NCBI GenBank assembly: GCA_965224195.1
Contig: OZ245040.1
Span: 1,152,001 to 1,216,000, forward strand
DNA from: Nitrosopumilus sp.
Lineage (GTDB): Archaea; Thermoproteota; Nitrososphaeria; Nitrososphaerales; Nitrosopumilaceae
Length of the DNA: 64,000 bases
Direction of reading: 5' to 3'
This document shows, one piece after another, positions 46,773 to 48,693 of the stretch (the stretch's first letter is position 1; every line of letters starts with the position of its first letter). Position numbers and translations under genes: made by a program. The notes beneath the pieces are model-generated. The model did not search any database and was not told where the DNA came from. It worked only from the letters and a program-made list of their open reading frames with translations.

Positions 46773-47182
46773 ATTGTTGATTTTGAAATACCCCTAAAGA
46801 GTTGTATTGTTAATTGGTATCAGCATTCCATTTTGAATGTCAAACCGCTTTAATCATTCAAAATTAGAACGATTGGTATTCAGTATATTCCCAATCTAAC
46901 CAATTAACATTATTTTGTGAAGTATCTTGAAAATATATTTTTGTAAATTAGATTATTTTTCGTAGCAAGCCATTTGCTGTTTTAGAATAACTATGTGTGG
47001 ATTTTTTTGTTAATATCCTGAGTCTTTTTCTACTAGTGATAATTTTTTATATCTTTGAATGCCTGAATATTTTTATGAAAACTATATTATAATTTATAAA
47101 AATCACTTGTATTTTATGTAATTATTCATACTAAATATTAAATAGTTATTTGTCTTATCCAATATGATGTTGTTAGTTATAA

Positions 47183-47300
47183 AATCTGGCGATTAGATTG
47201 CGCTACCCCGCAGAACGAAAAAGGCAATCAGGCGTTTAGACGTTTGACCACGAGAGGAAATCTCTCAGAGTTCTGCAGTTAGGGGTTTGCGCCTTTTTGT
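47183..47300 (+). ncRNA. putative structured small RNA of unknown family
   Basis: GC-rich intergenic segment with nested stems GCGC/GCGC, ACCCC/GGGGT, GCAGAAC/GTTCTGC, hairpins TCAGGCGT-TTAG-ACGTTTGA and GAGAG-GAAAT-CTCTC, then T-tract. Confidence 0.65.
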
Positions 47301-47311
47301 TTTCTTTAGAA

Positions 47312-47497
47312 TCATTTAGCTTTTCTAGATCTTGGCTTTGTTCTCAAAACTGCCTTACAGCAAACACACCTGATATCTTCTGATGAGAAAAAAATACCAC
47401 AATATGTGCATCTTTTTTGTCCAATTTCATATCTGATTTTGTTTGAAACTGGCTTTGCTTTATGCATCTCACAAATACCTCTACATGTTCTACCCAT
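47312..47497 (-). CDS. Cys-rich zinc-finger microprotein
   Basis: CRGIC..RY..GQKRCTYC...CVCC..LRTKPR. Confidence 0.8.
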   Translation of the reverse strand: MGRTCRGICEMHKAKPVSNKIRYEIGQKRCTYCGIFFSSEDIRCVCCKAVLRTKPRSRKAK

Positions 47498-47601
47498 CTT
47501 TTTTCACTTGAGTTCATTTGGGTCTCATGGTATTTGAATAAAACACCATTTTCTTACTAGTGGTAATTTTTAGATTGATTTGATGATTTTGAGTATTTTA
47601 C

Positions 47602-48693
47602 TCAAGTAACAATTTCATCTAAACGGTCTTCTTCTTGTGCTCGTTTAATTTCCATGGCGATTCTTCTACCCACACCGAATGTTTGACCATGTTGATATTT
47701 TGTATATGGGCTAGTTGTTGCAACAATTGGATTTCCTGGAACTCTTAATGATACATCATATACGATTAATTCTAGATCTTTTGTAATTACACTTTGTAAT
47801 GAAAATGGACCAATGATTCCTGGGGCATATTCTTTCTTTACTGCTGCCACAAATTTGTCTCCCATTTTGAGTACTTTTTCAAGTAATGATTCTCTGATAC
47901 TTGCAGGTGTGTGTCCTACTTCGATATTTTGTAAATCAATATCCATTTCTAATTGCTCTTTTGCTGGAAGTGCATTGTAATCATGAATGTTAGTTTGTAA
48001 TCTTCGCTCAATTCCGATAAAGTCAACTTGATTTGAAATTGGAGTATGGAAGAAATTAAAATTCATGTATGTTCCTATTGCCAATTCTTCAATACTTGCT
48101 TTTTCAAGATCCTTTCTAGCAATCACTCCTTGCTTGATTTTTTCTTCAGATTTTGTTACATAGTCTTTGTAGGATGATACGTTAAAAAACGCTCTTTCCA
48201 GGGGTCTCTTTTTTTCTTGAACTTTGACAATGCATGGCTTGTTAATTCGTTTAGGATCTTTGAATAATTTCGGGTATTTTATTCTGGCTTTTTCTAAAAG
48301 ATAGTATTGTCCTTTTTTAGCAGTTCTTTCTTCTGCTTGGAATAATTTTCTATTTCCAAATATTGGAACTTTAAATGAATTCTCAATTATTTTGTATCCC
48401 AAGTATACTGTAAGTGATCTGTGAGGAACAATGATTGTACTAGAATCTCGTAACTCTTTTTGATATTTAGCAGATGCCATATCTTTGAATTTATCTAAAA
48501 CTGTAATCTCATCTGCAATACGTCCAAATCTTTGATAAGGTCCTTCTCGTCCTTTTTGACAAAAGACTCTAGTTTGAAAATCTTCATCTTTAGCACCATC
48601 CATTATTTCAAGTGCTGAGTGACTTCCAAGAACGCCAATTTTGACATCAGAATAATCGTTGACTATTTTCTTTATCTCAGAACTTTTAATCAC
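47602..48693 (-). CDS. purP: PurP-family FAICAR synthetase (ATP-grasp)
   Basis: LGSHSAL..GAKDE, IVPHRS, FGNR, ASIRESLL, IIGPFSLQ, GRRIAMEI. Confidence 0.88.
   Translation of the reverse strand: MIKSSEIKKIVNDYSDVKIGVLGSHSALEIMDGAKDEDFQTRVFCQKGREGPYQRFGRIADEITVLDKFKDMASAKYQKELRDSSTIIVPHRSLTVYLGYKIIENSFKVPIFGNRKLFQAEERTAKKGQYYLLEKARIKYPKLFKDPKRINKPCIVKVQEKKRPLERAFFNVSSYKDYVTKSEEKIKQGVIARKDLEKASIEELAIGTYMNFNFFHTPISNQVDFIGIERRLQTNIHDYNALPAKEQLEMDIDLQNIEVGHTPASIRESLLEKVLKMGDKFVAAVKKEYAPGIIGPFSLQSVITKDLELIVYDVSLRVPGNPIVATTSPYTKYQHGQTFGVGRRIAMEIKRAQEEDRLDEIVT

Follow-up and report, generated by a model that had tools for sequence, protein, structure and literature searches.

A structured small RNA specific to Nitrosopumilaceae, with a conserved 5' mini-ORF and a covarying three-way junction

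The 64-kb stretch of Nitrosopumilus sp. DNA analysed here, referred to below as the window, contains a structured RNA gene that is very probably both real and previously undescribed. The gene is about 130 nt long and extends on the + strand from position 47166/47167, its predicted 5' end, to about 47298, with a promoter of its own. It is one of three paralogous small-RNA genes of the source genome, designated classes A, B and C, the window copy being class A. A nine-codon open frame at the 5' end of the predicted transcript, the mini-ORF, is followed by a three-way-junction domain. The explanation favoured in this study, with a probability of roughly 0.4, is that the leaderless mini-ORF acts as a gate, controlling in cis how the junction domain folds, and that the junction domain is an effector acting on a protein or RNA partner. 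An earlier first-pass annotation of this DNA had delimited the unit as 47183-47300; the folded region it recognised stands, but the unit begins earlier than was thought and includes the mini-ORF and a hairpin, P0. This first third of the predicted transcript and the promoter geometry were absent from that annotation. The features of the locus and of its paralogues are listed in Table 1.

Table 1. Features of the small-RNA gene in the window, its paralogues in the source genome (G000), and the genes flanking each class
Feature	Coordinates	Strand	Basis or remarks
TATA box TTAAATA	47138..47144	+	Conserved in relatives at fixed spacing
Proximal promoter block, CTTATA/CTATA type	47154..47160	+	Anchored upstream regions of 54 copies; probable promoter-proximal role
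Mini-ORF: ATG, 8 sense codons, TAG (MLLVIKSGD)	47167..47196	+	Frame conservation
Hairpin P0 within the mini-ORF (47171-76/47186-91), loop with TATAAAAT-like sequence	47171..47191	+	Covariation
5' strands of P1 (47200-03), P2 (47205-09) and P3 (47210-16)	47200..47216	+	Fold and covariation
Junction strand J1, A-rich (GAAAAAGGCAA)	47217..47227	+	Conservation; CGAAAAA block in class C too
Hairpin H1, sequence and loop length variable	47228..47247	+	6/6 modelled pairs changed on both sides
Hairpin H2 (GAGAG/CUCUC), G-N-A-A-U loop, nearly invariant	47252..47266	+	Covariation and conservation
3' strands of P3 (47270-76), P2 (47282-86) and P1 (47289-92); variable 5-6 nt bulge at 47277-81	47270..47292	+	Fold, covariation and conservation
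Invariant C, then U-rich tail (TTTTTGTTTT); probable 3' end	47293..47303	+	C47293 in 81/81 distinct rows
Class B paralogue (L062)	G000:C1:172800-172943	-	Same promoter, 9-codon frame and closing stem
Class C paralogue (L231/L232)	G000:C1:954032-954165	+	Same promoter, 9-codon frame and closing stem; different interior
Class A flanks: facing gene PurP (DUF1246/DUF1297); divergent conserved 86-aa ORF			PurP convergent in 22 loci
Class B flanks: facing gene of ~145 aa; divergent short-chain dehydrogenase			Facing gene in 41 loci, its stop codon overlapping the RNA tail
Class C flanks: presumed facing EPSP-synthase-like (aroA) and divergent chorismate-synthase-like (aroC) genes			In 19/21 loci; identities assigned by reading the sequences

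The junction domain forms a GC-rich island of about 100 nt in AT-rich intergenic DNA, as the first-pass annotation had noticed, with a GC content of 0.51 at 47200-47299 against 0.15-0.27 across the 250 nt upstream. The minimum-free-energy fold of 47183-47300 (+ strand) reaches -41.0 kcal/mol, compared with a mean of -29.6 kcal/mol for shuffled sequences (z = -3.28; 1 of 200 shuffles equals it), and it contains P1, P2, P3 and the hairpins H1 and H2, that is, all five of the mutually compatible stems that had been proposed. The minus strand of the same region is almost as stable, at -37.9 kcal/mol, so the strand is undecidable by folding energy alone. The strands joining the helices measure 12, 5 and 3 nt (GAAAAAGGCAAU, ACCAC and AGA). 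The T-tract that had been taken for the end of the unit is present at 47294-47298; the tail is U-rich in most copies, with several genera lacking a U-rich tail, and we infer that it represents an archaeal oligo-U terminator.

The structure was examined in two alignments of relatives. Alignment A1 comprised 54 full copies aligned on the basis of MAFFT, with the consensus computed by RNAalifold. Alignment A2 comprised 82 realigned copies, giving 81 distinct rows and 32 pairs. Its fitting to the model biases it towards the model structure, but the same helices are independently obtained from A1. Standard pairs occupy 95.7% of the paired cells in A2, and 20 of the 32 pairs changed on both sides, in 171 cells, although the copies are related by descent and copy counts overstate independence. 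Pairs with compensatory changes occur in all five helices (P0, P1/P2, P3, H1 and H2). None of 500 shuffles reached any of five measures, and 3' partners slid by 1-3 columns paired at 31-55%. A covarying structure in relatives, which the earlier annotation had proposed to look for, was thus found. The excess of G-U/U-G cells (151) over A-C/C-A cells (29) indicates that the RNA is read from the + strand, in agreement with the earlier remark that the G-U pairs favour this strand. A minus-strand reading, in which the structure would belong to the 3' untranslated region of the facing gene, was considered and rejected; it is disfavoured by the same 151:29 ratio and by the + strand promoter and frame.

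Conservation is distributed unevenly over the RNA, the junction domain being far better conserved than the mini-frame. In the GCG/CGC part of P1, two pairs are found in 81/81 distinct rows and the third in 80/81, with one G-U. The pair 47203/47289 shows compensatory change (UA 55, CG 12, UG 6), as does 47209/47282 (CG 68, UA 8, AU 3), and P3 is mostly near-invariant. Three of the five pairs of H2 are invariant in 81/81 rows, as are the first and last bases of its loop, G47257 and U47261, and its closing pair covaries (GC 64, AU 14). The variable parts are H1 and the bulge of 5-6 nt between P3 and P2. A mutual-information scan for a pseudoknot or other additional pairing returned, among its top pairs, only consensus helices or the split between classes A and B. 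As a separate observation, the purine strand and loop of H2 (47252-47262, + strand) partly resemble a Shine-Dalgarno sequence when compared with the 3' end of 16S rRNA, at 7 of 9 positions and more closely in some genera. In classes A and B this partially similar stretch is held within the H2 stem.

The first-pass annotation had also suggested that the junction strand at 47218-25 can alternatively pair with 47291-98. The complementarity exists in the window sequence; as a conserved feature the pairing did not hold up, being no better than expected from composition. Over the 82 copies, 76.9% of the J1-tail cells pair against 74.9% in shuffles, and slid registers covary equally or more. Four copies (L052, L056, L076 and L077) look compensatory by eye, an A-A stands uncompensated in seven copies of the L038 type, and divergent genera are unpaired. 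The apparent pairing can be attributed to the opposition of an A-rich strand and a U-rich one. More generally, no mutually exclusive pairing of the attenuator type (an antiterminator), to which a ribosome could shift the fold, was found to be conserved across the aligned copies.

The RNA was found throughout the family Nitrosopumilaceae. A second copy in the source genome is 77% identical to the window RNA, and BLAST searches, another check that had been proposed, revealed conservation in 36 of 36 genomes of the same genus, mostly with two matches each, and nothing better than E = 0.145 in 24 genomes of other families. A covariance model built from A1, R1, matched 22 of 23 Nitrosopumilaceae genomes and none of the 127 genomes searched in 19 further families of the order. 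The refined model R2, built from A2, matched 80 of 80 genomes of the family (79 of 79 without one unpublished genome, G284), representing 17 of 17 genera, and none of the 70 genomes searched outside the family but within the class. The large searches with R1 and R2 used the stricter filters of Infernal, and absence here means not found in the genomes searched. An exact-pattern scan of named genome records yielded at least 118 matching stretches, and the labels among the matches listed were Nitrosopumilus, Nitrosarchaeum, Nitrosotenuis, Nitrosomaritimum, Nitrosopumilaceae and a few otherwise-labelled contigs of metagenome-assembled genomes, consistent with the thaumarchaeal origin assumed earlier. 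Viral contigs gave 0 matches in this comparison, and a viral origin is not supported.

Genomes of the family usually carry two or three paralogues, at conserved positions. Several contigs were observed to end inside the RNA (G004:C72:1-83, G023:C41:1-89, G023:C76:1-83, G020:C47:1-83, G005:C107:1-78 and G013:C26:10000-10036), which is what a repeat of about 100 nt occurring as two or three similar copies should produce. Because fragmented assemblies often break in the RNA, annotation pipelines will tend to miss it.

The most divergent paralogue, class C, was recovered as a weak third R2 match in the source genome (25.5 bits). It has the same TATA box, 9-codon frame, 3-nt spacer, GCG...CGCC stem and U-tract as the other classes, and a different interior. 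By BLAST it was found in 21 of 101 genomes of the family, belonging to 6 of 27 genera. Its consensus fold is again a three-way junction, closed by a stem of 11 bp and carrying an H1 that covaries and an H2 rich in purines; 9 of its 26 pairs are compensatory. Class C copies preserve the frame, beginning it with ATG or GTG and ending it with TAA or TGA, even though their P0 is out of register. The complete source genome was scanned for a TATA box followed at 28-30 nt by a start codon and a frame of 5-14 codons, which gave 211 candidates; when these are ordered by the folding energy of the next 110 nt, the three family members occupy the top three places (-38.5, -35.5 and -33.4 kcal/mol).

Comparison with known RNA families bears out the suggestion that this may be an undescribed thaumarchaeal small RNA. 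The cmscan search against Rfam that had been recommended assigned no known family: with the 4227 models of Rfam 15, there were 0 matches at the gathering score in the 64-kb window, and at E<=10 six weak matches appeared at 46900-47600, none of them on the + strand over the RNA. Searches at E<=1 of the class B, class C and divergent loci gave only an unrelated tRNA and a weak match to a CRISPR repeat. Targeted literature searches turned up no description of this RNA. The RNA had been judged not to resemble several well-known types, and this judgement proved sound for each of them. ARAGORN detected 0 tRNA or tmRNA genes in the window. One gene each for 5S, SRP and RNase P RNA is expected per genome, and all three were found above the cut-off elsewhere in the source genome (RF00001 at C1:1999142-1999261, RF01857 at C1:384629-384940 and RF00373 at C1:1027387-1027665), none of these families matching at the locus; the window RNA is therefore not a diverged copy of any of them. 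No Rfam match to the hammerhead or other self-cleaving ribozymes was obtained, and the hammerhead core is absent from the junction strands. The further idea that the RNA might be a ribozyme found no backing, as no ribozyme family matched and no cleavage-site signature was seen.

C/D sRNAs are defined by C and D boxes with a k-turn, and H/ACA RNAs by an ACA box 3' of a pocket hairpin. No such boxes occur in 47167-47298, no Rfam model of either kind matched over the RNA, and the 3' end consists of CGCC and the U-rich tail, so that the exclusion of C/D sRNAs also stands. Downstream of the gene, at 47373-47438 (+ strand), weak matches to C/D-box snoRNA-like models were observed (TtnuCD28, E = 6.5; snoZ199, E = 9.4), far below the gathering score. 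This stretch has UGAUGA near its 5' end and CUGA near its 3' end, and may represent either a C/D guide sRNA or a chance resemblance.

The first-pass annotation had placed a TATA-like sequence near 47135-47145, and a TTAAATA box conserved in relatives does lie within this interval. In the anchored upstream regions, a box of this type precedes essentially every copy. In 73 of 82 copies, the first base of the 7-mer stands exactly 56 nt upstream of the stop codon and hence 29 nt upstream of codon 1; measured to the start codon actually used, the distance is 29 nt in 76 copies, 28 nt in 4, 30 nt in 1 and 36 nt in 1. In the four copies with frames of 8 codons (L087-L090), it is the TATA-ATG distance of 28-29 nt that stays fixed. 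Upstream of the first ATG of the long ORFs of this genome (n = 1156), the same motif peaks at 29 nt (11 cases) and 28 nt (9 cases), with 0-6 cases at other offsets. In published work, the archaeal promoter box is located about 26 nt from leaderless starts, and 11 of 11 Thaumarchaeota are placed in the leaderless group (PMC6028130). The agreement of the TATA-ATG spacing with that of the long ORFs and with the distance given in this source predicts that the transcript starts at the ATG at 47167 or 1 nt before it. By its spacing, the locus is a putative leaderless archaeal transcription unit with a predicted transcription start. The TATAAAAT-like sequence at 47178-85 was also considered as a promoter element and rejected: it lies in the P0 loop and in the frame, it is unconserved in divergent copies, and the actual box is the one at 47138-44.

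The mini-ORF is conserved as a frame. Among the 82 copies, the start codon is ATG in 78, the other four having TTG or GTG at codon 2 without a 5' ATG; the stop codon is TAA in 56, TAG in 22 and TGA in 4. In the window, the TAG at 47194-96 lies 3 nt before P1. The mini-frame is free of indels, while the spacer between stop and P1 varies from 3 to 5 nt. The frame was further analysed using 70 distinct 30-mers, derived from 103 copies of classes A, B and C. Internal stops are present in 0 of the 70 in frame 0, compared with 54 in frame +1 and 34 in frame +2. The same 70 sequences encode 68 distinct peptides, so it is the open frame (start, length and stop) that is conserved and not the peptide. 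Third codon positions are not the most variable, the mean entropy being 1.05, 1.28 and 0.96 for the three positions; given the unconserved peptide and the lack of third-position excess, the frame may be kept for a reason other than translation. About 22 nt of the mini-ORF are shared with P0, of whose five pairs four changed on both sides; 93% of its cells are paired, and G-U pairs arise only when it is read on the + strand.

The genomic surroundings describe a stand-alone gene. No ORF of 40 aa or more begins on the + strand within about 100 nt downstream of the window RNA, in line with the first-pass remark that no + strand gene follows. In 55 of the 82 class A/B loci both nearest ORFs are on the opposite strand; other contexts were seen in 19 loci, and in 18 a same-strand ORF comes next downstream, with unrelated products (CorA, PAPS reductase and uncharacterised proteins). 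The head-on arrangement is repeated, but at only three independent genomic positions. Since the flanks differ by class and locus and the downstream products are incoherent, the RNA is a stand-alone gene rather than the leader of a coherent regulon. A riboswitch leader would be expected to precede functionally related genes on its own strand; such a set is likewise lacking in the 18 of 82 loci concerned, which agrees with the earlier view that the RNA is not an obvious riboswitch leader. A same-strand gene follows the end of the RNA model closely in three loci of other genera, a CorA-like gene in L079 and L081 (at +88 to +91) and a PAPS-reductase-like gene in L077 (at +5), and the RNA might act in cis in these three.

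Further observations concern the neighbouring ORFs. Convergent with the window RNA, at 47602-48693 (- strand), lies a 363-aa ORF with the domains DUF1246 (E = 6.5e-46) and DUF1297 (E = 6.9e-73), which we take to be a PurP-type enzyme of archaeal purine synthesis. Between the RNA and this gene, a 61-aa Cys-rich ORF at 47312-47497 (- strand) has no Pfam match and no counterpart among the other flanking ORFs of the 82 loci. Among the first 60 loci, the 300-nt gap that holds it is conserved in L003 and L005 only, and the longest ORF there is on the other strand; the 61-aa ORF may not be a gene. Beside the class B copy of the source genome, the short-chain dehydrogenase gene is broken into two ORFs, one of 196 aa and one of 69 aa (L002 1764-2354 and 2373-2582, + strand), in place of the single ORF of about 247 aa of its relatives, and the split may reflect a frameshift, a pseudogene or an assembly error.

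Sequencing runs were also inspected. Matches were present in 24 runs, 14 of them recorded as RNA, all with small shares of 0.06-0.18, and four were examined as assembled contigs. Run X1 is probably DNA, X2 covers only 47068-47102 and X3 has none. In X10, a single 267-nt contig from a seawater metatranscriptome lies over 47209-47309; it gives neither strand nor ends, and could derive from the convergent gene. Assembled contigs carry no strand, ends or level and so speak neither for nor against transcription.

Gating of the junction domain by the mini-ORF would proceed as follows. The transcript would be leaderless, and ribosomes would load on its 5' AUG. A ribosome positioned at a stop codon covers roughly the next 12-13 nt, and because only 3-5 nt lie between the end of the frame and P1, a ribosome terminating there would have to melt P0 and the 5' strands of P1 and P2. 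In this way the mini-ORF may serve in cis as a gate, worked by the ribosome, that controls how the junction domain folds; the gate would set the stability of this domain, its 3'-end formation or its binding of a partner. The junction domain itself would be the effector, binding a protein or another RNA.

A somewhat unlikely alternative is that the RNA is structural and entirely non-coding, serving for instance as scaffold for an RNA-protein particle; the frame would then be an untranslated by-product of constraints on the start, on P0 and on spacing. The variety of peptides without excess variation at third positions would be natural under this explanation, as would the covariation of P0, the four copies without a 5' ATG and the much stronger conservation of the junction domain. 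It leaves unexplained why frame 0 alone is free of internal stops, why the stop position is kept with three different stop codons and the start with ATG, GTG or TTG, and why the frame stays indel-free next to a spacer of variable length. Moreover, class C retains the frame with P0 out of register, and the TATA box sets the start at the AUG as in leaderless protein genes. If the frame is coding in the ordinary sense, the locus could be a tiny mRNA whose product is the 9-residue peptide, with the junction domain stabilising and terminating it at the 3' end. The leaderless geometry of the promoter would fit, as would the conservation of the open frame, but the peptide sequence is unconserved and the sequence of the 3' domain is conserved well past the needs of a stabiliser, so that this explanation has only a slim chance of being right.

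The gene arrangement raises the question of whether the element controls the facing gene, or read-through from one co-directional gene into the other, by antisense pairing or polymerase collision. The opposite-strand neighbours in 55 of 82 class A/B loci (PurP convergent in 22, the ~145-aa gene in 41), the position of class C, flanked in 19 of 21 loci by aroA (convergent) and aroC (divergent), the overlap of the class B tail with the stop codon of its neighbour and the A-run of J1, which is a U-run on the other strand, are all compatible with such a cis-antisense or convergent-transcription element. It is nevertheless improbable: the arrangement comes down to the three genomic positions mentioned above, the context is a different one in 19 of 82 loci, the next ORF downstream is on the same strand in 18, and a function of this kind needs no covarying three-way junction, near-invariant H2 or conserved frame. 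A riboswitch-like element, in which metabolite binding at the junction would determine termination at the U-tract, has a little less in its favour than a tiny mRNA. The three-way junction, its conserved nucleotides and a closing stem abutting the U-tract recall such elements, but no riboswitch family matched, no consistent same-strand gene follows (18 of 82 loci, unrelated products), the tail is not U-rich in several genera and the alternative pairing is unsupported. Least probable of all, and very nearly negligible, is a self-cleaving ribozyme or a tRNA-like processed RNA, with P1-P2 resembling an acceptor and the invariant C comparable to a discriminator base. The three-way junction and the invariant GCG...CGC-C at the helix end suggest the comparison, yet no ribozyme or tRNA model matched, the junction strands have no hammerhead core and nothing similar to a T-loop or anticodon is present.

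Nitrosopumilaceae carry out much of the ammonia oxidation in marine and fresh waters and are hard to culture, the clade being among the most abundant on Earth. No regulatory RNAs of this family were found described in the literature searched. The presence of the RNA in all 80 genomes searched with R2, usually as two or three paralogues, makes it unlikely to be dispensable, and the RNA offers a concrete object for the study of post-transcriptional control in these archaea. The models R1 and R2 are usable as a family-specific marker and as an annotation aid. In its most far-reaching form, gating by the mini-ORF would make this RNA the first translation-gated RNA switch of Archaea, present family-wide in three paralogues, with the ribosome opening or closing the junction; this is a speculative extension and is unlikely to hold in full. 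Were it true, the RNA would report the translational state of the cell to a partner or to the facing genes, which belong to purine, aromatic amino acid and other pathways. If the mini-ORF is translated, the RNA would be an archaeal counterpart of ribosome-sensing leaders, and translation-coupled RNA control would become directly testable in archaea.

Among known systems, the RNA can be compared with tmRNA in having, within one molecule, a short stop-ended frame and a structured domain closed by the pairing of distant strands. It differs in having its own 5' start codon and in lacking a tRNA-like domain (by ARAGORN), a CCA-type end and a T-arm. To our knowledge, tmRNA is not known in Archaea. 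Tan1, an orphan abundant non-coding RNA of 229 nt from marine group II Euryarchaeota (PMC5069720), is like the present RNA in being structured, specific to one lineage of marine planktonic archaea and discovered through comparison or transcriptomics. Compared by description only, Tan1 differs in its length and its phylum, and that description reports no mini-ORF (PMC5069720).

The likeness to leader-peptide attenuators is closer. These too have a very short 5' ORF followed directly by a GC-rich stem and a U-tract, and in the present RNA, as in them, translation rather than the peptide may be what matters. The known mycobacterial type combines short-ORF attenuators with leaderless initiation (bioRxiv 10.1101/834739), which is also predicted here. 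Unlike attenuators, the RNA in the window belongs to a family that in most loci has no same-strand regulated gene downstream, its peptides contain no runs of a sensed codon and it has no conserved antiterminator pairing. In addition, its junction domain greatly exceeds a terminator in complexity, and its host is an archaeon. We know of no case in which hairpin-dependent termination has been established in archaea.

As a stand-alone gene combining a short frame with a conserved structured part, the RNA is also similar to the dual-function small RNAs SgrS/SgrT, RNAIII/hld and SR1/SR1P. In those the peptide is conserved and functional, whereas the present RNA conserves the frame only, and it is archaeal and predicted to be leaderless. 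Judged from comparative sequence data, a small RNA with a putative regulatory mini-ORF of this kind appears to be new as a family and, if the mini-ORF is translated, would be new for Archaea.
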